Shown: one piece after another, positions 4,683 to 32,982 of the stretch
Layout: each line of letters starts with the position of its first letter
Numbering within the stretch: position 1 is the first letter of the stretch
Origin: an uncultured Candidatus Saccharibacteria bacterium
GTDB taxonomy: Bacteria; Patescibacteriota; Minisyncoccia; Minisyncoccales; PEYH01
Reading direction: 5' to 3'
Length of the DNA: 64,000 nucleotides
NCBI GenBank assembly: GCA_964388775.1
Contig: CAYMBW010000001.1
Coordinates: forward strand, 71,317 to 135,316
Position numbers and translations under genes: made by a program
The notes under the pieces: generated by a model
The model's database searches: none
What the model saw: the letters and a program-made list of their open reading frames with translations, nothing else
Told to the model about the DNA's origin: nothing

Positions 4683-5675
4683 TTGACAGGAGGAATTTCG
4701 AGAAAAGTCCCGAGCAAGGACTTTTCTTTGCGCAATATGCTTATTTTAATTTTTGGCAAAGATACATATAGAGGATGGCAAAAGCTTAAAGAGATAGTCG
4801 GCGATTTCGAGCAAGAGAACAATATTTCTTTGTCTTTGGATTCTTTGGAAAATGATACTTTTACAATAGAGGATTTGAAAAACGAATTAAGGCATGGCTC
4901 AATGTTTGAGAAAAAAAAGATAGTAGTTTTGAGGAACGGCTTTAGCAAGACGAACTTTAAAGAAGGGTTTATGAAAGAAATTAAAGGCCTATCAGGATAT
5001 AAAGATGCTTTAATGGTTTTTTATGAAGAAGGAGAGGCCTCAATAAATGCGGATTTTTTGAAACTTCTCAAGAAATACGGCGATGTTTACAAGTTCGATT
5101 TTTTAAAAGACAGCGACTTGAAAGAATGGGTTAAAAAAGAGTTATCTTTATTAGGGGCAAGGGTGAACCCGGATGCTCTGGCGTTATTAATTAATTCAAC
5201 GGGTGGCGACTTGTGGCGGTTATCAGCGGAGATTAAAAAACTTGTTGCCTATAAAGTGAGCGAGAAGAATATTGAGAAGAAAGACGTGGAGCTTTTAGTG
5301 AGGCCCAATGTTAATGCCGTGATTTTTAAAACCATTGATGCGATCGCCGCGGGAGACAAAAAAATCGCTCTTGATTTGATATATAGACATTTAGAAAAAG
5401 GCGATTCCCCGCTTTATCTCTTTTCAATGATAATATTTCAATTTAGAAATCTATTGGTTGTTAAAGAATTGGAGGAACGGTCTTTTGAAGAAAAAGTAAA
5501 AATTTTAAAACCTATGCGCCCTTTTGTGGTAAGAAAAAGCTCTTGGTTGGCGGGCAGGTTTTCTCTGAAGCAGCTACAAGACATCTATTTGAAAATTTTT
5601 AAGATGGATTTGGCGATTAAGAAGGGGAAAATAAAACCAGAGACAGCTCTGGAATTATTGGTTGCAGATATCTAA
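4683..5675 (+). CDS. holA: DNA polymerase III delta subunit; start probably the internal ATG near 4736
   Basis: Length and pattern (MLILIFGKDTY... C-terminal IDAIAAGDKKIALDLIYRHLEKGDSPLYLFSMIIFQFRNLL) typical of HolA; 5' end overlaps the preceding gene, so the start is uncertain. Confidence 0.65.
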   Translation: MTGGISRKVPSKDFSLRNMLILIFGKDTYRGWQKLKEIVGDFEQENNISLSLDSLENDTFTIEDLKNELRHGSMFEKKKIVVLRNGFSKTNFKEGFMKEIKGLSGYKDALMVFYEEGEASINADFLKLLKKYGDVYKFDFLKDSDLKEWVKKELSLLGARVNPDALALLINSTGGDLWRLSAEIKKLVAYKVSEKNIEKKDVELLVRPNVNAVIFKTIDAIAAGDKKIALDLIYRHLEKGDSPLYLFSMIIFQFRNLLVVKELEERSFEEKVKILKPMRPFVVRKSSWLAGRFSLKQLQDIYLKIFKMDLAIKKGKIKPETALELLVADI

Positions 5676-5716
5676 AAAGTGTTTGATTTCCGAAATCAGA
5701 CAATCTGATAAGTGTT

Positions 5717-5971
5717 TTATTTCAAAACCCGGGTAATGCTGGATTTTTTTCTGGCCGCCGTATTTTTCTTGATAACATTTTCTTTGGCCGCCTTGTCCAC
5801 CGCCTTATAATACTTAGAGAGCAGTTCGCGCGCTTCTTTTATTTTGTTTTCTTTTTGCAGAGCAAGGATTTGCTTTTGCAGTCCCTTAATGATTTTTTTG
5901 TAGCGCAAATTAGACGCTCTGTTTCGGCGCTCTTTTCTCAATGATTTAATGGCTGATTTTGTAATAGGCAT
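5717..5971 (-). CDS. rpsT: 30S ribosomal protein S20
   Basis: MPITKSAIKSLRKERRNRASNLRYKK...; ATG verified at 5969-5971 on the minus strand; the tool ORF carries a 5-aa upstream extension. Confidence 0.85.
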   Translation of the reverse strand: MPITKSAIKSLRKERRNRASNLRYKKIIKGLQKQILALQKENKIKEARELLSKYYKAVDKAAKENVIKKNTAARKKSSITRVLK

Positions 5972-6080
5972 GTTTCCTTTGGTCAAATTAAAAAATTAAA
6001 ATGAAAAATTAAGAATAAGAATAAAATATTTCTTGTGGTTAATACAATATCATACCCTTTATTTTTTTTCAAGCTTGAGC

Positions 6081-6118
6081 GGTTGAAAGCAAGCGGGGAA
6101 TAGGGAAATTAAATTTGA
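6081..6118 (+). repeat. promoter-like direct repeat, copy 1 (GTTGAAARCAAGCRGGRAATAGGG), upstream of the DGR
   Basis: About 30-nt core shared with 9375-9417 (4 mismatches); contains -35-like TTGAAA. Confidence 0.5.
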
Positions 6119-6126
6119 CTTTGTTT

Positions 6127-6162
6127 TGACAATGTGTTATGATGATGTTGTTATTATAATGA
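6127..6162 (+). promoter_or_regulatory. candidate promoter for the DGR target gene
   Basis: TTGACA followed 20-23 nt later by TATTATAAT; strong SD AAGGAGG 8 nt before the ATG at 6300. Confidence 0.3.
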
Positions 6163-6299
6163 AGTTCTTTGAAAAAAGAGGTTCAACCTTATGAGGCGAG
6201 TTCTTTGGGCGTCCCTCAAAAGGGATTTCTAAAGGTCTCGTCTCATAAAAGAGACAAGACGTTTATCCGAGCGAATCGGGTAAGCAAAACAAAAGGAGG

Positions 6300-7208
6300 A
6301 TGACGATGCCAAAAGCATTGATCACTAGCCGTGACGACAAAGGTCGTCATGCGGTCCACTTGTTCGAGATTGAGTATGACAAAGCAAGACTCGATGATGC
6401 ACGCGCGCAGCGGCTCAACGAGCGTGGAGGCGAACTCCAGGAAGGCATCGCAAAGCTCATCGCAGAGCTCTCGGTGTCCAACCGGTTCGCTGACGAGGAA
6501 ATGGAGTCGAGTTACACCTACCCAGGGGAGTACAAGGGGCCGAAGCCGATCGAGGAGCAGATCAAGGCAATCGCCAAGATCTTTGGACTTGACCCGAGTC
6601 AGGCGTTGGAATACGCCAAGAACTTGCCGGCGCTCCCCGAGGGTGCCGAAGGGTGGTTCGCAATCCCGTCGGTCGACGCACTTGCCAAGAGGCACTTCCC
6701 CGAAGTGACTGACCCGGTTGAGAAGTACTGCCGAGCTGTTCAGCTCGTTCACGCCAAGATCGCGGAATTTCGAACGTTCTGCAACTACCGCGAGGGGCAG
6801 ATCACACCTGACCACCTTCGGATGCATGCTCATACGGCACGCACACTCGAGCAGATCGCTGAGACGCAGAAGGGTGATATCCTAATCATCGCTGCTGAGC
6901 TCGGCATGAGGCACGGGAATCCGATTGCCCGCTCTGTTCGCAGAGCTCGTGAGGTTTTCATCGATAACGAGTTCGGCCTCGGATCAGTGGCAGGAGGATC
7001 CATCCTTCTGACTCATCCAGAGAGAGAGGTTCGATGGGAACAGCTTCACATGGTTCTTCCTGGCGATGAGTTTGCCCCGGGAGCCGGTGGCGATTTCTCG
7101 GGCGCGCCCTGCTTCTACTTCCACGACGGCAGGCTCGGGTTCGGCACGTACTGGCTCGACAATGCCAATCAGAACTATGGCTCGGCGTCCGGCTTTCTCC
7201 CGCAGTAG
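6300..7208 (+). CDS. DGR target (variable) protein with C-terminal variable repeat; no signal peptide; GC-rich relative to host
   Basis: Last 41 codons (AGGDFSGAPCFYFHDGRLGFGTYWLDNANQNYGSASGFLPQ) form the VR; gene is about 55-65% GC in a roughly 34% GC genome; SD AAGGAGG. Confidence 0.85.
   Translation: MTMPKALITSRDDKGRHAVHLFEIEYDKARLDDARAQRLNERGGELQEGIAKLIAELSVSNRFADEEMESSYTYPGEYKGPKPIEEQIKAIAKIFGLDPSQALEYAKNLPALPEGAEGWFAIPSVDALAKRHFPEVTDPVEKYCRAVQLVHAKIAEFRTFCNYREGQITPDHLRMHAHTARTLEQIAETQKGDILIIAAELGMRHGNPIARSVRRAREVFIDNEFGLGSVAGGSILLTHPEREVRWEQLHMVLPGDEFAPGAGGDFSGAPCFYFHDGRLGFGTYWLDNANQNYGSASGFLPQ
7083..7205 (+). repeat. DGR variable repeat (VR), 3' end of target gene
   Basis: 123 nt aligning with 7640-7762; 12 mismatches, every one at an A in the TR copy; identical GC-rich 3' end (IMH-like). 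Confidence 0.85.
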
Positions 7209-7282
7209 TACTTTGGACTCTTGGGACTTTTGAACCCTTTTGGGGGTTTGACTTCTTGTCTCGGGGGCTAACAAGACATCAA

Positions 7283-7325
7283 TGAGGGCTGTTCACCACG
7301 CATGACAGCCCTCACTCTTTTTTTA
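7283..7325 (+). terminator. rho-independent terminator after the target gene
   Basis: GAGGGCTGT-tcaccacgcatg-ACAGCCCTC followed by a T-run; preceded by a second hairpin TCTTGT-ctcgggggcta-ACAAGA (7252-7276). Confidence 0.6.
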
Positions 7326-7639
7326 TTTTCTAAACCTGATATACTGATAGACGAGTATAGGCTAATGTATGGCAGTTTACGCCCGCCTGCAGCGCTTTGC
7401 GCAGCAATGCGGGCAGGGATTGCTATCGCCGAACTCTCTCTTCAATAAAAAGAGATTAAACAACCAGAATCTTGACGACTACGGTTTTCAAGAGCGAGTT
7501 GTCTTGAGGAGATACTGCTTGCTCTTGTCTGGGGCAGATGCCTCGAGTTTATCGAGGGGCTGCTGCCGAATAAAATACAGGAAGAAAAGATTTTCTTAAC
7601 TTCCAGTGATATGGATGGACAAGGGCAAATTAACCGGAA

Positions 7640-7762
7640 GCCGATGGCGATTTCTCGAACGCGCCCTACTTCAACTTCAACGACGGCAAGCTCAAGTTCG
7701 ACACGAACTGGCTCGACAATGCCAATCAGAACTATGGCTCGGCGTCCGGCTTTCTCCCGAAG
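7640..7762 (+). repeat. DGR template repeat (TR)
   Basis: Encodes ADGDFSNAPYFNFNDGKLKFDTNWLDNANQNYGSASGFLPK in the VR frame; the variable codons are AAC, AAG, GAC, GAT and TAC; about 29 A residues, 12 substituted in the VR. Confidence 0.85.
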
Positions 7763-7765
7763 TCT

Positions 7766-7806
7766 CTTCTCAAAGAACAAAGAGTGTCTGTTTTAAGACA
7801 CTCTTT
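7766..7806. terminator. perfect 14-bp hairpin immediately 3' of the TR, also at the 3' end of avd on the minus strand
   Basis: AACAAAGAGTGTCT-gtttta-AGACACTCTTTGTT; possible bidirectional terminator or DGR structural element. Confidence 0.5.
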
Positions 7807-7815
7807 GTTTATCAG

Positions 7816-8166
7816 TTAATTATTCAAGGACCTTATCCAACCGCCGAGCATTCGGCCGATTTCATCAATTTCTTTTTCAATCAAGATATATTTTTTATTA
7901 TCCAATGCCTTTGTATCTTTTAATAAGCGCATAAATATGCGGAGCATATCAAGCATAGAATCAATATTTCTTAAATCTTTAAGTTTTTCATTTTTAGGAA
8001 GACGGCTTACTTTAAGAATGGACTCTATAATCTCAAGCAGGGCATCCTCTGTTTTTGCATATATCGTAAATCTGTCCTGTTTAGGAATCAGGTACCTGAA
8101 TTCATGAAGTAATTTGTATAATTCATACAACTTTTTGAAAATGGGGATTTCATCTTCAATATTCAT
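7816..8166 (-). CDS. avd: DGR accessory variability determinant (Avd-like four-helix-bundle protein)
   Basis: 116 aa; C-terminus EIDEIGRMLGGWIRSLNN and overall pattern match Bordetella bAvd / 23S-IVS four-helix-bundle family (EVGRILGSWIARVN). Confidence 0.75.
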   Translation of the reverse strand: MNIEDEIPIFKKLYELYKLLHEFRYLIPKQDRFTIYAKTEDALLEIIESILKVSRLPKNEKLKDLRNIDSMLDMLRIFMRLLKDTKALDNKKYILIEKEIDEIGRMLGGWIRSLNN

Positions 8167-8187
8167 TTCTTTTAATCTTAATTATAT

Positions 8188-9240
8188 ATGGACTTATTTA
8201 ATCAAATAATTTCTTTAGAGAATTTATTTTTGGCTTGGGATAAATTCAAGAAAGGAAAGGGGAATAAATTAGATGTCCAGGAATTTGAATTTAATCTTGA
8301 AAAGAATATATTCCAACTTCACAAGGATCTTAAAAATAGATGCTATATCCATTCGCCATATGAAAGTTTTTTTATTAAAGATCCGAAAAGAAGGAATATC
8401 CATAAGGCCACTGTCCGAGATCGTGTAGTCCATCATGCTATATTTGCGATAATTAACCCGATTTTTGAGCCGACCTTTATTTCCAATTCTTTCTCTTGTA
8501 GGGTTGGCAAGGGAAATCATAAAGGCGTAGATGCCCTCGCAAGAATGATAAGGAAAGCAAGTAATAATGGTTTTAAAAATTGTTTTATTCTTAAATGCGA
8601 TATTAAAAATTTTTTTGGAACAATTGACCATAGAATTTTATTAGACATTGTCCGCAAGCGGATAAAAGACGATGACTCAATGCGGCTCTTGGAAGAAATT
8701 ATTGAAAGTTTTTCTTCCCAATATTCAACTCTTTTTGAACGAAAAGGTTTGCCGATAGGCAATTTAACTTCTCAATTGTTTGCCAATATCTACCTTAATA
8801 AATTTGACCAATTTATTAAGCACAAATTAAGGATTAAGAATTATCTAAGATATACTGATGATTTTGTAATTTTATCAGGAGATAAAATCTATTTAGGAAA
8901 ACTTATCTCAACGATTAGTTTATTTCTCTCGGATAATCTTGCTCTTAAATTACATCCTAAAAAAGTTACAATTCGCAAATTTCATCAAGGGATAGATTTC
9001 CTTGGCTACATACTTCTGCCGCATTATCGTCTTCTGCGGGCGAAAACAAGACGGCGAATATTTAGAAAGATAGGGGAGCGAATTAGGGAATATAAAAATG
9101 GGACAATCAGTGAGCAGTCCCTCGTACAATCATTACAATCATATCTTGGCGTCCTATCACATGCTAATACATATGAGCTTGAACAAGAATTGAGAAATCA
9201 ATTTTGGTTTTGGCTCAATTCGGTTCCGTCAACCCGATAG
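8188..9240 (+). CDS. DGR reverse transcriptase
   Basis: RT motifs include the DGR-specific GLPIGNLTSQLFANIYL (I/LGxxxSQ) and YxDD box RYTDDFVIL; N-terminal LFLAWDKFKKGK. Confidence 0.9.
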   Translation: MDLFNQIISLENLFLAWDKFKKGKGNKLDVQEFEFNLEKNIFQLHKDLKNRCYIHSPYESFFIKDPKRRNIHKATVRDRVVHHAIFAIINPIFEPTFISNSFSCRVGKGNHKGVDALARMIRKASNNGFKNCFILKCDIKNFFGTIDHRILLDIVRKRIKDDDSMRLLEEIIESFSSQYSTLFERKGLPIGNLTSQLFANIYLNKFDQFIKHKLRIKNYLRYTDDFVILSGDKIYLGKLISTISLFLSDNLALKLHPKKVTIRKFHQGIDFLGYILLPHYRLLRAKTRRRIFRKIGERIREYKNGTISEQSLVQSLQSYLGVLSHANTYELEQELRNQFWFWLNSVPSTR

Positions 9241-26770: not shown

Positions 26771-27607
26771 ATGAGCAATTACTATGTCGTCAATCTAAAA
26801 GGAGAGAGAGAACCATTTTCTTTGGTAAAAGTTTTGAGAAGCGCAAGGCGCGCCGGCGCTTCAAAGGACTTAGCGCAAAAAGTGGCATTGGAAATAGAAA
26901 AGATTGTTTATCCGGGCATAAAAACCAGTGAAATTTTTAGGAAAGTCCATCAATTTCTCAAAAAAGAGGACAAACAATCAAGTTTGCGATTCAGCTTGAA
27001 GGAAGCGATGAGGAAATTGGGCCCTAGCGGTTTTCCTTTTGAGAAATACATAGGGGAAATTTTCTCCGCGCATAAATACGAGGTCTCGTTAAATCGGAAA
27101 ATAAAAGGAAAATTCGCTCTTCATGAAATTGATTTTTTGGCGCGGAATAAAGAAAAATTATATATTGGAGAATGTAAATTCCGTATTTTTCCCGGAGAAA
27201 AAATTGATTTAGCGATAGTTCTGGCATTTTATGCCAAATTTTTAGACCTCAAGAATGGCAATTATTTTAATCTGCCAAGAAACGTTGTTTTAAAGCCAAT
27301 TTTGGTTACCAACGCAAAATTCAGCTCGCAAGCCATCAGGTACGCCAATGGTATGGAAATTGAGCTTTTGGGTTGGAGACATCCGCCAAGCAGGGGGCTG
27401 GAGTTCATGATTGAGGCGGAACAACTTTATCCCATTACAATTTTACCTTCATTTAAGGGATATTTAATGGAAGCGTGTTCGCAGGCAAGATTGATGTTCG
27501 CCAGAGATATGTTGAAAAGGAGTTCCGGAGAAATTGCCGGAGAGATTGGCATTGACGAGAACAAACTTTCTCCTTTGGTTAAAGAAGCCAAAACATTATT
27601 GGAATAG
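26771..27607 (+). CDS. ATP-cone domain fused to a restriction-endonuclease-like (Mrr/PD-(D/E)xK) domain
   Basis: N-terminal ATP-cone pattern (VVNLKGEREPFSLVKVLRSARRAG), then EIDFLARNKEKLYIGECKF (PD-ExK-like). Confidence 0.5.
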   Translation: MSNYYVVNLKGEREPFSLVKVLRSARRAGASKDLAQKVALEIEKIVYPGIKTSEIFRKVHQFLKKEDKQSSLRFSLKEAMRKLGPSGFPFEKYIGEIFSAHKYEVSLNRKIKGKFALHEIDFLARNKEKLYIGECKFRIFPGEKIDLAIVLAFYAKFLDLKNGNYFNLPRNVVLKPILVTNAKFSSQAIRYANGMEIELLGWRHPPSRGLEFMIEAEQLYPITILPSFKGYLMEACSQARLMFARDMLKRSSGEIAGEIGIDENKLSPLVKEAKTLLE

Positions 27608-27686: not shown

Positions 27687-29402
27687 ATGGACAAAGAGGA
27701 ATTAATAGGCCTTGTCAAAAAGGCGATTTTAATAGCTCAAAAAGAAGGCAAACTTCCTGATTTTAATATTGCGGAAATCTCGATAAATTATTCTGAAAAA
27801 AAGGAATATGGAGATTACAATACTCCGATAGCGTTTTCTATTGCCAAACAAATCAATCAGACCCCGGATTCAGTGGCAAAAATTTTGGCTGATTATCTAT
27901 CACAGAAAGAAGAGACAAAATCTGCAAAAGCACAGGGCGGGTTTGTAAACTTTTATCTTACAGATAAAGACCTGCAAGATTCCTTGAAAATTATTTTGAA
28001 ACAGAAAGACAAATACGGCTCCAGCAACAAAGGCAAAGACAAAACAATGGTCATAGATTATTCCGCGCCCAATATTGCCAAGCCGTTTGGAGTCGGTCAT
28101 TTGCGTTCTACAATTATCGGGCAGGCAATCTATAATTTGTATAAATTTTTGGGCTGGAAGTGCATAGGCGACAATCATCTCGGCGATTGGGGAACTCAAT
28201 TCGGTAAACTTATTATTGCAATCAAGAAATGGAATAAAAAGCCGTTAAAAGAATTAACTGTCTTGGATTTGCAGGCATTATATGTTCGGCTCCATACGGA
28301 AGCGGAAACCCAGCCAGAACTTTTAAAAGAATCAAGAGAATGGTTTAGAAAGCTTGAACAGGGAGATAAAGAGGCCCAAGAAATTTGGAAAATATGTGTG
28401 GATATAAGTATGGAAGAATTTAAAAAGATTTATGATATTCTTGGGGTTAAGATAGATGAGGCCTTGGGAGAAAGTTTTTATGAGGATAAAATGAAAGCGA
28501 TAATTGAGAGCGCTAAAAAAAAGGGCATCGCCCAAAAGAGCCGAGGTGCATTAGTAATCGTCTTGCCCGGGATGAATGTTCCTTTAATGCTTTTAAAATC
28601 AGATGGAGCCACTACTTACGAAACAAGGGATTTGGCAACCATCAAATATAGGTTGGAAAAATGGAAACCGGACTTGATTGTCTATGAAGTTGGGGCTGAC
28701 CAACGGTTTCATTTTGAAAAAGTATTTAAGGCAGCAGAAATGCTCGGCTACAGCAAGGGCATTAAGCTCAAACATATTGCCCATGGATTGATTCGCTGGG
28801 AAGATAGAAAATTTTCTACCAGAAAAGGAGACACTATTGCCTTGGAAGAGGTCTTGAACGAAGCGGTCAAAAGAGCCAAAGATATTATTTTAAAATCAAA
28901 AGAAAATCAAGATATCAGCGCTGAACAGAGAGAGCAAATTGCCGAGCAGGTCGGAATCGGGGCGGTGAAATATAATGACTTATCCCGCCAACCGGAGAAA
29001 GATATTATATTTGACTTGGACGATATGGTAACATTGGAAGGTAATTCGGGTCCCTATCTTCAATATACCGCTGTGCGATGCCAAAGCGTTTTGGACAAGG
29101 CCGGCAAAATAAAGAAAGAGACAGGGATTGCTGCTTTAAACCCAGAAGAAAAATCCGTAATATGTCTTTTAAAAATTTTCCCGGAGATTATAGAAGAATC
29201 AGCCAAAACTTTTTCCCCGAATTTGATTTGTAATTTTGCTTTTGATTTGTCTCAAAAATATAATATTTTTTATGAAAAATGCTCAATTTTAAATGCCGAT
29301 AGCGAGCAGAAGAAGCTCCGCCTTGCCATAACCGCTGCGACCAGGCAAGTTTTAGAAAATAGCTTGGAATTATTGGGAATAGCCGTTCCCGAAAAAATGT
29401 AA
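27687..29402 (+). CDS. argS: arginyl-tRNA synthetase
   Basis: PNIAKPFGVGHLRSTIIGQAI (HIGH region), DALR anticodon-binding domain; 571 aa. Confidence 0.9.
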   Translation: MDKEELIGLVKKAILIAQKEGKLPDFNIAEISINYSEKKEYGDYNTPIAFSIAKQINQTPDSVAKILADYLSQKEETKSAKAQGGFVNFYLTDKDLQDSLKIILKQKDKYGSSNKGKDKTMVIDYSAPNIAKPFGVGHLRSTIIGQAIYNLYKFLGWKCIGDNHLGDWGTQFGKLIIAIKKWNKKPLKELTVLDLQALYVRLHTEAETQPELLKESREWFRKLEQGDKEAQEIWKICVDISMEEFKKIYDILGVKIDEALGESFYEDKMKAIIESAKKKGIAQKSRGALVIVLPGMNVPLMLLKSDGATTYETRDLATIKYRLEKWKPDLIVYEVGADQRFHFEKVFKAAEMLGYSKGIKLKHIAHGLIRWEDRKFSTRKGDTIALEEVLNEAVKRAKDIILKSKENQDISAEQREQIAEQVGIGAVKYNDLSRQPEKDIIFDLDDMVTLEGNSGPYLQYTAVRCQSVLDKAGKIKKETGIAALNPEEKSVICLLKIFPEIIEESAKTFSPNLICNFAFDLSQKYNIFYEKCSILNADSEQKKLRLAITAATRQVLENSLELLGIAVPEKM

Positions 29403-29403
29403 C

Positions 29404-32400
29404 ATGGAAATAATTTTTCCTAAAATTGAAGAGAAAATAATAAAGTTTTGGAAAGAAAACCGGATTTTTGAAAAATCCTTGGAGAAAAAAGGAGGAGATT
29501 TTATTTTTTATGAAGGTCCGCCAACGGCCAATGGAAAGCCGGGAGTTCATCACGTTTTAGCGAGAGCGCTAAAAGATATAATCTGCCGTTATCAGACAAT
29601 GAAAGGGAAAAGGGTTTTAAGAAAAGCGGGATGGGATGTGCATGGGCTTCCGGTTGAACTGGAAGTTGAAAAACAGCTTGGATTACGGGATAAGAAAGAC
29701 ATAGAGAAATACGGAATAGCGCAATTTAATAAAGAGTGCAAGAAATCCATTTGGAAATATGCCGGCGAGTGGAAGGACCTTACGGAAAGAATTGGCTATT
29801 GGCTGGATATGGAGAATCCTTATGTCACTTCCGACCCTTATTATATGGAAAGTGTTTTTTATATAATTAAAAGGGTCTGGGAAAAGGGGCTGTTGTATCA
29901 AGGATATAAAGTTCTGCCTTATTGTCCGCGTTGCGGGACCGGGCTTTCGTCCCATGAAGTGGCGCAGGGATACAAAAAAATAGCGGAGAAAGCCATATAT
30001 GTGAAGTTTAAAGTCCAAAGTCCAAAGTCAAAAGTCCAAAGTCCAAAGTCCAAGGTCAAAAATGTAGAGACGGAAGACAATACTTATTTATTGGTTTGGA
30101 CAACAACCCCGTGGACCTTGCCGGCAAATGTGGCCATAGCCGTTAATCCGAAAATTGAATATGTCTTGGCAGAAAAAAATGGAGAGCAATTAATTTTGGC
30201 TAAAGCGAGGCAGGCAGTTTTGGGTGATGATTTTGAAATAATGCAGGAATTTAAAGGAAAGGATTTGGTCGGATTAAATTATGCTCCATTGTTCGACGAG
30301 AGCGTTGTTTCCGCGCAATCAGAAGGAAAGAATATTTATCAAGTTTTGCCGGCGCACTTTGTCACCACAGAGGAAGGAACCGGATTAGTCCATATTGCTC
30401 CTGCCTTTGGTCAGGATGATATGGAACTTATAAAAAGTCAAAATACAAAACCCAAAACAAAAAGTGGCGGAAGCGGAGAATTTCCGATTTTATTACCCGT
30501 GGATGAAAGCGGTAGATTCAGGCCGGAGGTAAAAGAATGGGCAGGGATATTTGTAAAAGACGCTGACCCGTTGATTACGGAACACTTGAGACAAAAGGGG
30601 CTTCTATTTAAGGAAGAAACACATGAACATGATTATCCATTTTGCTGGAGGTGCGATACTCCGCTTTTATACTACGCCAAAAAAAGCTGGTTTATAAAAA
30701 CAACAGCTCTTAAGAATAAATTAATAAGCAATAATCAAAAAATTAACTGGATGCCTTTGCACATAAAGGATGGAAGATTCGGCGAGTGGTTAAACGAGCT
30801 TAAGGATTGGGCTATTTCCCGCGAAAGATATTGGGGCACGCCCTTACCTATTTGGGAATGCCAAAAGTGCGCCGAAAAAATAGTTATTGGTTCAAGAAGT
30901 GATTTATTAAAACAAACATTTACGGCTAACAAATATTTTGTATTAAGGCACGGAGAGGCCGTCTCTAATGTAGAGGATTCGTTTTCTTCTTGGCCGGAGG
31001 GCAAAAAAGCGCCGCTTACTGAAAAAGGAAAAGAACAGCTGAAAAAACAAATACCATCATTGAAAAATAAAAAAATTGATTTAATAATTTCGTCAGATAT
31101 TTTGCGGACTTCGCAAACCGCGGAGATAATGGCAGATGCCCTGGGCGCCCAGGTTGTTTATGATGAACGTTTACGCGAGATAAACACCGGCTTATTGAAC
31201 GGAAGAGCGGTTCAGGAGGGAGTCAAGTACTTTAACCCGGACAATAGTTTGACTCGCGACCAGATTCTTTTGAAAAGATTTGAAGCCCAATTCCCCGAGG
31301 GAGAGAATTATTCAGAGGTAAAATTAAGAGAGCTGGATTTCATAGATGATATTAATAGAAAATATAAGGGCAAAAAGATATTGCTCGTGAGCCACGAGTT
31401 GCCAATTATGATGCTTAAAAGCATTGTCCTTGGTTTGACGAATAAAGAGTTCGTTGATAACGAGGAGGACCTTTCTATCGATACGGGAAAATTTCAGGAA
31501 TTGGATTTTCGTGCTTTTCCATATAATACAGAGGGAGAATTGGATTTTCATAGGCCATATATTGATGAAATAAAATTTGCTTGTCCCAAATGCGGAGGGA
31601 TAATGCAGCGAGTGCCGGAAGTTATGGATTGCTGGCTTGACTCCGGCTCAATGCCATTCGCTCAAGGCCATTGGCCCCTTAATGACCAATTATCAATAAT
31701 CAAAAATCATTTAGCGCCGCCGGAGTTATTCCCTGCTGACTACATCAGCGAGGCGATAGACCAAACAAGAGGATGGTTTTATACTCTTTTAGCGATTTCC
31801 ACTTTATTGGGATTCGGGCCGAGCTATAAAAATGTGATTGTTTCGGGGCACGTGCTGGATGAGAATAGTCAAAAAATGTCTAAATCCAAGGGCAATGTGG
31901 TTGACCCCTGGGAGATGGTGAAGAAATATGGAGCAGACGCTTTAAGATGGTATTTTTATACGGTTAACCAGCCGGGAGACCCAAAATCATTTATTGAAAA
32001 AGATGTTGATAACGCCCTAAAGAAATTCATTCTCACTTTATGGAATTGTCATATTTTCCTCCAGACATACAAGCCCAAAAATTTAGACCTAAATTCGCAG
32101 AGATTAAAGCCAAACAATTTGCTTGACAAATGGATTCTGTCTAAACTTAATGGTTTAATTATGGAAGTAACCGTCAACATTGATGCCTATAATATTACTG
32201 CCGCAGCGCGTCTGATTGAGGATTTTGTCATAAATGATTTGTCCCTATGGCATATTAGACGTTCCCGCAATCGATTGCAGAGACCCAAGGACGCAAAAGA
32301 AGCGGAAGAATCAGCATCTATTTTAGCAGCCGTTCTTACCAATATTTGTAAATTAACTGCGCCATTTATTCCTTTTTTGAGCGAAGAGATTTATCGAGAG

Positions 32401-32982
32401 ATAAATGGAAAAGACAAGAGCGTTCATTTAGCAAGCTGGCCGAAAGCGGATAAGGCGAAAATTAACAAGGAATTGGAAGAAGAAATGAAGGCGATTAGAG
32501 AGATTGTCGCCCTTGGCCTTAAAATAAGGAGCGATGAAGGAATCAAAGTAAGGCAACCGCTCAAAAAACTAAAAATTAAAAATGAAAAATTAAAAGTAGG
32601 GGAAGGACTGATTGAGTTGATAAAAGAGGAATTAAATGTTAAAGAGGTGGAGTTTCAGGTTGATGGAGAAAAGAGTGACAGTTGGGATTTGGAATATGAC
32701 CTTGAAATCACCGAAGAGCTTAAAAACGAAGGGATTATTAGGGACATTATCAGACAGATTCAAAATATGAGGAAAAAATCCGGGTGTAAACCAGAGGACA
32801 GAATTACGATTTATTACTCCGCAATAGGGAGTTTGTCCGGGTTGATGACCGGGAAAAAACAGGAATTATTGTCTCAAGTCGGAGCAGAGGATTTAATTTC
32901 TTCAAAAGAAGACAAGGGACTTAAAATAGAATCAATTTCAAAAATAGACGGTCAAGAGCTTTGGTTGGGCTTAAAATTATAG
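29404..32982 (+). CDS. ileS: isoleucyl-tRNA synthetase with ~200-aa inserted histidine-phosphatase (PGAM-like) domain and a 7-nt-repeat insert
   Basis: HIGH (PPTANGKPGVHHVLA), KMSKS (KMSKSKGN); an RHGE domain (VLRHGEAVSN...LTEKGKEQ...SSDILRTSQTA...SHE) lies between the CQKC and CPKCGG zinc motifs; KVQSPKSKVQSPKSKV encoded by 30012-30060. Confidence 0.9.
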   Translation: MEIIFPKIEEKIIKFWKENRIFEKSLEKKGGDFIFYEGPPTANGKPGVHHVLARALKDIICRYQTMKGKRVLRKAGWDVHGLPVELEVEKQLGLRDKKDIEKYGIAQFNKECKKSIWKYAGEWKDLTERIGYWLDMENPYVTSDPYYMESVFYIIKRVWEKGLLYQGYKVLPYCPRCGTGLSSHEVAQGYKKIAEKAIYVKFKVQSPKSKVQSPKSKVKNVETEDNTYLLVWTTTPWTLPANVAIAVNPKIEYVLAEKNGEQLILAKARQAVLGDDFEIMQEFKGKDLVGLNYAPLFDESVVSAQSEGKNIYQVLPAHFVTTEEGTGLVHIAPAFGQDDMELIKSQNTKPKTKSGGSGEFPILLPVDESGRFRPEVKEWAGIFVKDADPLITEHLRQKGLLFKEETHEHDYPFCWRCDTPLLYYAKKSWFIKTTALKNKLISNNQKINWMPLHIKDGRFGEWLNELKDWAISRERYWGTPLPIWECQKCAEKIVIGSRSDLLKQTFTANKYFVLRHGEAVSNVEDSFSSWPEGKKAPLTEKGKEQLKKQIPSLKNKKIDLIISSDILRTSQTAEIMADALGAQVVYDERLREINTGLLNGRAVQEGVKYFNPDNSLTRDQILLKRFEAQFPEGENYSEVKLRELDFIDDINRKYKGKKILLVSHELPIMMLKSIVLGLTNKEFVDNEEDLSIDTGKFQELDFRAFPYNTEGELDFHRPYIDEIKFACPKCGGIMQRVPEVMDCWLDSGSMPFAQGHWPLNDQLSIIKNHLAPPELFPADYISEAIDQTRGWFYTLLAISTLLGFGPSYKNVIVSGHVLDENSQKMSKSKGNVVDPWEMVKKYGADALRWYFYTVNQPGDPKSFIEKDVDNALKKFILTLWNCHIFLQTYKPKNLDLNSQRLKPNNLLDKWILSKLNGLIMEVTVNIDAYNITAAARLIEDFVINDLSLWHIRRSRNRLQRPKDAKEAEESASILAAVLTNICKLTAPFIPFLSEEIYREINGKDKSVHLASWPKADKAKINKELEEEMKAIREIVALGLKIRSDEGIKVRQPLKKLKIKNEKLKVGEGLIELIKEELNVKEVEFQVDGEKSDSWDLEYDLEITEELKNEGIIRDIIRQIQNMRKKSGCKPEDRITIYYSAIGSLSGLMTGKKQELLSQVGAEDLISSKEDKGLKIESISKIDGQELWLGLKL
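30012..30060 (+). repeat. 7 tandem units of the heptanucleotide AGTCCAA/GTCCAAA inside ileS
   Basis: Period 7 nt; in frame overall (encodes SKVQSPK heptads); related arrays at 11427-11475, 43048-43075, 46214-46248, 46893-46920, 47164-47195 and 47570-47625. Confidence 0.85.

Follow-up and report, generated by a model that had tools for sequence, protein, structure and literature searches.

A histidine phosphatase domain nested within an isoleucyl-tRNA synthetase of Patescibacteria

Introduction

Does a phosphatase take part in the charging of tRNA? The question is raised by a 64,000-nucleotide (nt) stretch of DNA from an uncultured Candidatus (Ca.) Saccharibacteria bacterium (contig CAYMBW010000001.1, positions 71,317 to 135,316; hereafter the window). 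In this window ileS, the gene for isoleucyl-tRNA synthetase (IleRS), encodes a histidine phosphatase (His_Phos) domain nested within the synthetase. Accessory synthetase domains are normally editing hydrolases or tRNA-binding modules, and a conserved, intact phosphatase in the catalytic region would add new chemistry to tRNA charging. Both component families are well known, and the proteins are public under generic names. What appears to be new is that they are combined by nesting, that this is so widespread, and that operons and fusions give evidence for a partnership. The phosphatase-in-IleRS architecture is undescribed in the searchable literature, which covers few subscription-journal papers.

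A histidine phosphatase inside IleRS

The open reading frame (ORF) 29404..32982 (+) encodes a protein of 1192 amino acids (aa) and has no internal stop codons. The inserted His_Phos_1 domain occupies aa 504-700 (30913..31503, +), as delimited by Pfam, alignment with the structure 8c8w, AlphaFold2 (AF2) modelling and Foldseek. A reading made from the letters alone (the sequence-only reading) had recognized a phosphatase signature here, and the domain scan bears it out. Pfam His_Phos_1 (PF00300) matches aa 512-684 (nt 30937-31455; E-value: 2.8e-31, 109 bits against a cut-off of 21.7). When the insert segment is scanned alone the E-value is 1.1e-32, and PF00300 scores range from 109 to 114 bits. 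The match ends at profile position 167 of 194, leaving the C-terminal part of the family unmatched.

The motifs quoted in that reading are all present, and their conservation can be followed in an alignment of 99 of the 120 best-scoring homologues. The RHG motif (aa 515-517; 30946..30954, +) contains R515 and the predicted nucleophile H516, both conserved in 99/99 sequences, and G517 (96/99). R568, the second phosphate-binding arginine, lies in 'SSDILRTSQTA' (31105..31107, +; 99/99). E592, the predicted general acid, lies in 'RLREINTG' (31177..31179, +) and is E in 81/99 and D in 18/99. H664, the distal catalytic histidine, lies in 'LLVSHE' (31393..31395, +; 99/99). The insert also has its own 'WPE' motif, in which P531 and E532 are at least 90% conserved.

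Modelled alone with AF2 from an alignment of 36 free-standing homologues, the insert has a predicted local distance difference test (pLDDT) score of 96.4 and a predicted template modelling (pTM) score of 0.92, in line with a domain that folds independently. Confidence stays high in the full-length model, where block-mean pLDDT is about 91-97 across the insert and its linkers and about 95 at both junctions. The nearest solved folds found by Foldseek are short branch-1 phosphatases of about 200 aa (TM 0.75-0.82, rmsd 2.3-2.9 Å, 20-26% identity), with a probability of 1.00 for PspA, PhoE, Rv2419c and cofactor-dependent phosphoglycerate mutases (dPGMs). According to these models, the insert is a branch-1 histidine phosphatase (PhoE/PspA/GpgP-like) that is predicted to fold independently.

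In fold, size and catalytic residues the insert resembles PhoE (1H2E), PspA (4IJ5), Rv2419c (4PZ9/4QIH) and the riboflavin-pathway HFP (9MMH). Among these structural neighbours, Rv2419c is a glucosyl-3-phosphoglycerate phosphatase and PspA is a phosphoserine phosphatase. Unlike the short branch-1 phosphatases, to which it is only 20-26% identical, the insert has the 'WPE' motif and belongs to a subfamily that is nested in, or encoded beside, a tRNA synthetase. Identity as a true dPGM was rejected from the NCBIfam scores (dPGM_arch, 93 against a cut-off of 225; pgm_1, 27.9 against 81.7; GpmB, 89 against 261), as was identity as PspA, CobC or SixA (76 against 350, 73.8 against 162.9 and 30.9 against 74.5, respectively). 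Because the insert falls under every curated NCBIfam equivalog cut-off, it is best placed in a distinct subfamily and is not a recognizable mutase or named phosphatase. A second His_Phos gene of this family was not found elsewhere in the 64-kb window.

Insertion point

The insert is flanked by the two zinc-knuckle motifs of the synthetase, CQKC (C486 and C489; aa 486-489; 30859..30870, +) and CPKC (C727 and C730; aa 727-730; 31582..31593, +). All four cysteines are invariant (99/99). The motifs are 237 residues apart, close to the unusually wide gap of about 240 noted from sequence, and the spacing across the 99 insert-bearing sequences is 222-239 aa. The spacing of 60-80 residues that the same reading took as normal has to be corrected, as close relatives without the insert have about 30-45 residues between the knuckles.

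The match to TIGR00392 and tRNA-synt_1 is interrupted by His_Phos_1, stopping at residue ~505 and restarting at ~718. Compared with type-2 IleRS of P. megaterium (PmIleRS2; 8c8w), query residue 503 pairs with chain residue 476 and query residue 700 with chain residue 474, which places the roughly 197 extra aa cleanly at one point. In PmIleRS2 the HUP catalytic core comprises residues 40-168 and 513-632, and the insertion region (Pm ~475) is coloured as connective peptide 2 (CP2) in the structure paper (PMC10485003). From these boundaries, the insertion lies in the connective-peptide region, CP2. The window protein thus differs from PmIleRS2 by ~197 extra residues in the knuckle loop, outside the HUP core. 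More precisely, the insert is placed within the loop of the second zinc knuckle of CP2, a Cys4 knuckle, ~37 residues ahead of the core restart 'DCWLDSGS'.

An insert-free IleRS at another locus (L029, gene 5585-8515) has a Lys/Ser-rich low-complexity expansion of ~25 residues inside its first zinc knuckle, CQTGKSEILNPKSKINSKSKILNSKPC. The same knuckle therefore tolerates other insertions.

Integrity of the synthetase

The host protein scores 902.5 bits with the IleRS family model (TIGR00392, ileS; cut-off 621.4) and is assigned by NCBIfam to isoleucine-tRNA ligase, type-2, MupA/MupB-like. Enzymes of this type are mupirocin-resistant and eukaryote-like. The Pfam scan finds tRNA-synt_1, Anticodon_1 and DUF5915, the last two forming the type-2 C-terminal set. 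The full-length AF2 model (pLDDT 87.8, pTM 0.81) has PmIleRS2 8c8u as its top Foldseek match (E-value: 2e-95, TMt 0.80). Like the type-2 enzymes of P. megaterium (8C8U/8C8V/8C8W) and T. thermophilus (1ILE), the window protein has a HUP core, the CP1/editing domain, zinc knuckles, KMSKS, an anticodon-binding domain and a DUF5915 C-terminus.

The HIGH signature is present as the variant P-G-V-H-H (aa 46-50; 29539..29553, +), of the [A/G]XHH type; across the 99 orthologues H49 is invariant and H50 is at least 90% conserved. The KMSKS signature (aa 824-828; 31873..31887, +) is intact, with K824, M825, S826, K827 and S828 all invariant. The editing-domain motif TTTPWT (aa 233-238) is also invariant, and isolated editing-domain structures align to aa 189-412. 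With the HIGH variant (GVHH), KMSKS and the editing motifs intact, the synthetase itself looks functional.

The PGVHH motif makes this protein a natural [A/G]XHH variant. Such variants have been tied to mupirocin hyper-resistance in IleRS2 (PMC10485003; 10.64898/2026.02.03.703510).

The gene also contains a 7-nt microsatellite, AAAGTCC repeated 7.4 times in frame (window positions 30010-30061; aa ~203-220). It encodes KVQSPKS repeats where the editing domain begins, in a segment with pLDDT below 50 that is missing from PmIleRS2. One unit more or fewer would frameshift an essential gene.

Conservation and distribution

The insertion is shared by orthologues from the candidate phyla radiation (CPR). 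PF00133 and PF00300 occur together in all 120 best-scoring homologues (53-100% identical); as ranking by score favours insert-bearing proteins, this count is no proof that every close IleRS has the insert. The source names are Patescibacteria, Parcubacteria, Nealsonbacteria, Pacebacteria and Paceibacterota. A UniProt example, A0A2H0TG97 of Ca. Niyogibacteria, is labelled only isoleucine-tRNA ligase. A genome scan with a single protein as query, which returned 17 loci, found the insert in Ca. Buchananbacteria; within the same scan it was absent in Ca. Falkowbacteria, Dehalococcoidia, Clostridia and Actinomycetota.

Mean pairwise identity among the 99 sequences is 47% for the insert, 68-73% for the Rossmann core and 44% for the C-terminal domain. 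This level of identity, together with the invariant catalytic residues, is what would be expected of an enzyme domain under constraint.

The phosphatase subfamily extends well beyond these close orthologues. When the insert alone was searched against 1.84 billion cluster representatives (50%-identity clusters), 847 proteins were recovered with E-values below 1e-10. The subfamily thus spans hundreds of sequence clusters in a huge uncultivated bacterial radiation of poorly known biology. Free-standing proteins of ~190-200 aa head the list (42-46% identity), and many IleRS fusions come after them. Among the best 150 of the 847, mapped locally with profile models, ~55 are free-standing, ~85 are IleRS fusions (including many contig-end fragments) and several have other architectures. 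The fusion had been described from sequence as unusual. Across life this holds; within the Parcubacteria and Paceibacteria it is common, as the ~85 IleRS fusions in 150 representatives make clear. In ~20 of the 150, ileS looks split, with a gene that begins at the insert, but these were rejected as a further class: 10 were checked, all on 2-9 kb contigs, and one representative clusters with a full-length IleRS of Ca. Niyogibacteria (1175 aa).

The argS-ileS locus

In the window, ileS directly follows argS (27687..29402, +), which encodes an arginyl-tRNA synthetase (ArgRS) of 571 aa with Pfam domains Arg_tRNA_synt_N, tRNA-synt_1d and DALR_1. Only 1 nt lies between the TAA that ends argS and the ATG of ileS (window 29400-29406), a spacing that suggests translational coupling of the two genes.

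In related bacteria the phosphatase is found as a gene of its own at this position. A search with the phosphatase domain of an ArgRS fusion (P0146, described below) matched exclusively free-standing proteins of ~190 aa, one from Ca. Paceibacterota and several named 'PhoE' in JGI data. Nine free-standing genes from this search were placed in their genomic context. In seven of the nine, argS and ileS are the immediate neighbours on either side. Six of these loci are co-directional, and in four of the six the gap from the phosphatase gene to ileS is 2-8 nt. The IleRS encoded beside a free-standing phosphatase gene is 946-976 aa long and lacks PF00300. It keeps both knuckles, with ~12 residues where the window protein has ~200.

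The order of genes in these relatives is L20-L35-IF3-SmpB, then argS-[HisPhos]-ileS-(small ORF)-RecO-DUF7619 protein. Next after ileS in the window come a 144-aa ORF, the gene for a DUF7619-like protein and that for a class II synthetase. The same synteny, including the class II synthetase, is found with an insert-bearing ileS in a Ca. Parcubacteria genome (L036). This common synteny indicates that the loci are orthologous and occur in alternative states, in which the phosphatase stands alone as a gene, is joined to ArgRS or is nested in IleRS. A rough neighbour-joining tree of IleRS cores, which has no support values, places a separate-gene lineage (L033) as sister to the 99-member clade of the window protein, with fused and separate states interleaved elsewhere. 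From gene order and sequence, the nested domain is the fused state of a phosphatase gene that is separate in sister Parcubacteria/Paceibacteria lineages. The separate gene between argS and ileS suggests a partnership between a phosphatase and tRNA charging that has not been described before.

Fusions to other proteins

Architectures were assigned by Pfam and NCBIfam scans and by direct reading of the sequences. A second IleRS sub-lineage, of the 'GPPFATG' type (P0164, P0184, P0220, P0135 and P0172), has one to three copies of the domain. Four insertion sites are known in IleRS (window numbering): ~505, between the knuckles (site A); ~731, just past the second knuckle; ~756-760, ahead of 'FPADxI..DQTRGWF'; and ~891, between the catalytic and anticodon-binding domains. 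The site combinations in the 'GPPFATG' type are B only, B+C, A+C and A+A'. One member of the P0220 90% cluster is on a 1.06-Mb contig.

Two other class I synthetases carry the domain. A valyl-tRNA synthetase (ValRS) fragment, P0126 (1161 aa, ENA), has four intact copies at two or more insertion points, one copy after 'SPQWF' and three after 'IPVWY', the equivalent of IleRS site A. A metagenome scan for further ValRS fusions returned solely ValRS without inserts. In the ArgRS P0146 (689 aa, on a 70-kb contig) a normal C-terminus reads straight into the phosphatase domain. This protein looks like the product of joining two genes that are neighbours in the argS-HisPhos-ileS arrangement.

The domain is also found at the C-terminus of the L-threonylcarbamoyladenylate synthase TsaC (P0157 and P0263). 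The TsaC fusion clade adjoins genes for a CCA-adding enzyme, TGT and TruD. Alternatively, TsaC in these bacteria is fused to 2H/CPDase phosphoesterase domains. More widely, the partners of Patescibacteria TsaC/Sua5 include the Ogt-type DNA_binding_1 domain (in most cases), TruB, 2H/CPDase, NUDIX, GNAT and methylpurine glycosylase, and together they look like a 'repair and house-cleaning' theme.

The signature R-H-(G/A/S)...R...(E/D)...H is kept in ~140 of 152 aligned copies from all architectures, and no copy in the multi-copy proteins lacks it. The other 12 comprise eight truncated copies and four with a single substitution. Site-A inserts have a mean identity of 35% to each other and 34% to free-standing proteins. 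In the two-copy IleRS clade the first copies group together (53-56%), as do the second copies (40-45%). By these comparisons the copies are old and diverged, at 33-47% identity.

Relation to known fused enzymes

The bifunctional RNase H/acid phosphatase of the Rv2228c type (NF005567) also joins a nucleic-acid enzyme to a His_Phos domain, one from the same general branch. It ranks with the top NCBIfam hits for the insert, although the score of 90 bits is far below the cut-off of 326 and the insert is not a member. The Rv2228c type is also an end-to-end fusion, whereas the window domain is nested in its synthetase. The CP1 editing domain of IleRS, ValRS and leucyl-tRNA synthetase offers another parallel, as it too is an extra catalytic domain in an enzyme to which the tRNA 3' end binds. 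An added catalytic domain is likewise found in the GNAT-bearing IleRS (NF040702), but the window protein is not a member of this family (293 bits against a cut-off of 1999). Bacterial CCA-adding enzymes carry an HD phosphoesterase domain. The insert differs from the editing, GNAT and HD accessory domains in its predicted chemistry (phosphomonoester hydrolysis), its fold and its insertion point.

Editing domains are recognized as insertion-only synthetase modules and are the sole synthetase inserts in a 2026 survey of domain insertions (PMC13114784). A 2026 survey of 96,219 IleRS sequences mentions neither a phosphatase nor the CPR.

Proposed function

Three independent comparative lines link the phosphatase to the synthetase: conserved neighbourhood, repeated fusion and a retained active site. 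Our overall reading is that the insert may be a phosphatase that is catalytically active and works as a dedicated partner of class I synthetases, and we regard the chances that it is right and that it is wrong as evenly poised. The sequence-only reading had raised a moonlighting activity. An extra catalytic domain with an intact signature is indeed present; the separate gene between argS and ileS and the repeated synthetase fusions fit a dedicated partner better than an incidental side activity.

The proposed mechanism is drawn from the superfamily and from comparative genomics. The nested domain would be an active phosphomonoesterase in which H516 attacks the phosphate, forming a transient phospho-histidine. 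R515, R568 and H664 would hold the phosphate, and E592 would protonate the leaving group. The phosphatase would be a stoichiometric partner of the synthetase rather than an unrelated enzyme. In the most speculative step, the domain would remove a phosphate that blocks or accompanies tRNA charging.

Several substrates can be considered. The leading candidate, proposed by analogy and only tentatively, is the tRNA 3' end: ends with a 2'/3'-phosphate or a toxin-added pyrophosphate might be healed on the synthetase and charged immediately. The varied attachment points favour this candidate, as a flexible CCA end would tolerate them. So do the TsaC fusion beside a CCA-adding enzyme and the alternative fusion of TsaC to 2H/CPDase domains. 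A precedent in its favour is provided by toxSAS toxins, which pyrophosphorylate tRNA CCA ends and prevent aminoacylation (bioRxiv 10.1101/2021.04.30.441581; PMC11559606). Clearance of a nucleotide- or pyrophosphate-type product is a second candidate, and a doubtful one. The third, which we think quite unlikely, is reversal of phosphorylation of the synthetase itself by a kinase toxin (HipA/HipT-like); its basis is the phosphorylation of GltX and TrpS by HipA and HipT (PMC6581861). In its most general form the proposal is that the subfamily might be an unrecognized 'de-blocking' phosphatase for tRNA ends or for the synthetase at the point of charging. It would have been captured repeatedly by class I IleRS, ValRS and ArgRS in a large branch of the CPR since proximity to the bound tRNA matters. 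This version is speculative and has a small chance of being correct. If the substrate is a blocked tRNA end or a phosphorylated synthetase, synthetases would be tied to resistance against translation-targeting toxins.

A number of observations weigh against a dedicated partner. All close structural neighbours of the insert act on small molecules. Genes with unrelated roles share operons in these genomes, with RecO next in line, and the fusion partners of TsaC are many and unrelated. With a net charge of -1.5 per 100 aa the insert is slightly acidic and so is no obvious RNA binder, and a simple electrostatic tRNA tether was rejected for this reason. The acidity and the small-molecule neighbours also count against a macromolecular substrate of any kind. 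Two of the nine free-standing genes are in a secA/mur context, and the nine contexts, chosen among relatives of the ArgRS-fused copy, may be biased towards argS adjacency. The ValRS and ArgRS fusions are each represented by one cluster representative.

Much of this would be explained if a small-molecule phosphatase (short dPGM-like, PhoE-like or phosphoserine-type) had been an operon neighbour of argS and ileS and had become fused at permissive surface loops. Its chemistry would be unrelated to aminoacylation, and fusion in these fusion-prone, streamlined genomes would secure constitutive co-expression only. We consider this possible, though we would not expect it. The nearest structural and NCBIfam likeness is to small-molecule phosphatases or a short archaeal dPGM, the argS-ileS operon also includes unrelated genes, and some free-standing copies are distant from any aminoacyl-tRNA synthetase. 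The promiscuous TsaC fusions (Ogt, TruB, NUDIX, GNAT, glycosylase) point to rampant gene fusion in these bacteria, and the insertion point is a variable loop, as the 25-aa low-complexity expansion in the same knuckle at L029 illustrates. Adjacency accounts for the end-to-end P0146 fusion. However, it does not account for in-frame insertion at four positions in two IleRS sub-lineages, or for the two or more positions and four intact copies in ValRS. These insertions and the multiple intact copies per protein call for another explanation, and they suggest that the domain works with the synthetase. The partners found are all tRNA-pathway adenylate-forming enzymes, which argues in the same direction, and the short gaps to ileS suggest stoichiometric co-production.

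The domain might instead have a non-hydrolytic role, as a phosphate sensor, as a dimerization or scaffold module linking IleRS and ArgRS, or as a phosphate-recognizing tRNA contact. The 'catalytic' residues would then be retained for binding rather than turnover. His_Phos proteins commonly dimerize, the linkers of the full-length model are confident and rigid-looking (~95 at both junctions), the domain is linked to ArgRS as well as IleRS, and several copies per protein could raise avidity. Nevertheless, the nucleophilic histidine and the acid are invariant or conservatively replaced in ~140 of 152 copies. This is the pattern of an enzyme, as binding-only relatives usually lose one of these residues. 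The insert also has no net positive charge, and we judge a purely binding role to be unlikely.

A selfish origin of the insert, as an intein-like or other mobile element, is extremely improbable, and so is an artefact of frameshift (with the phosphatase as a separate gene) or of chimeric assembly. The several positions and host genes superficially resemble mobile insertion. However, the Pfam scan of aa 493-732 gives His_Phos_1 alone, with no Hint/intein or homing endonuclease family, and an intein or mobile element was ruled out on these grounds. The composition of the insert equals that of its host gene (GC 0.403 against 0.396 for the rest), and the copies have diverged to 33-47% identity, which speaks against recent horizontal transfer. 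The region lies in frame within one continuous ORF, and is not the frameshifted separate gene that the sequence-only reading had allowed for. Gene calls on at least 24 independent contigs (JGI, Logan, ENA and NCBI data) give exactly this 1192-aa protein, and together with the matching GC this allows frameshift, chimera and recent transfer to be set aside.

A dedicated partnership of phosphatase and synthetase is directly testable with recombinant proteins. Natural controls exist in the three states of the orthologous loci, in which the domain is part of IleRS, a gene of its own or joined to ArgRS.

Upstream genes

Upstream of argS, the window contains a 278-aa ORF (26771-27607) whose sole Pfam match is AF1548-like_C, a restriction-endonuclease-like C-terminal domain. 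At the syntenic loci of relatives, other small genes lie between SmpB and argS.

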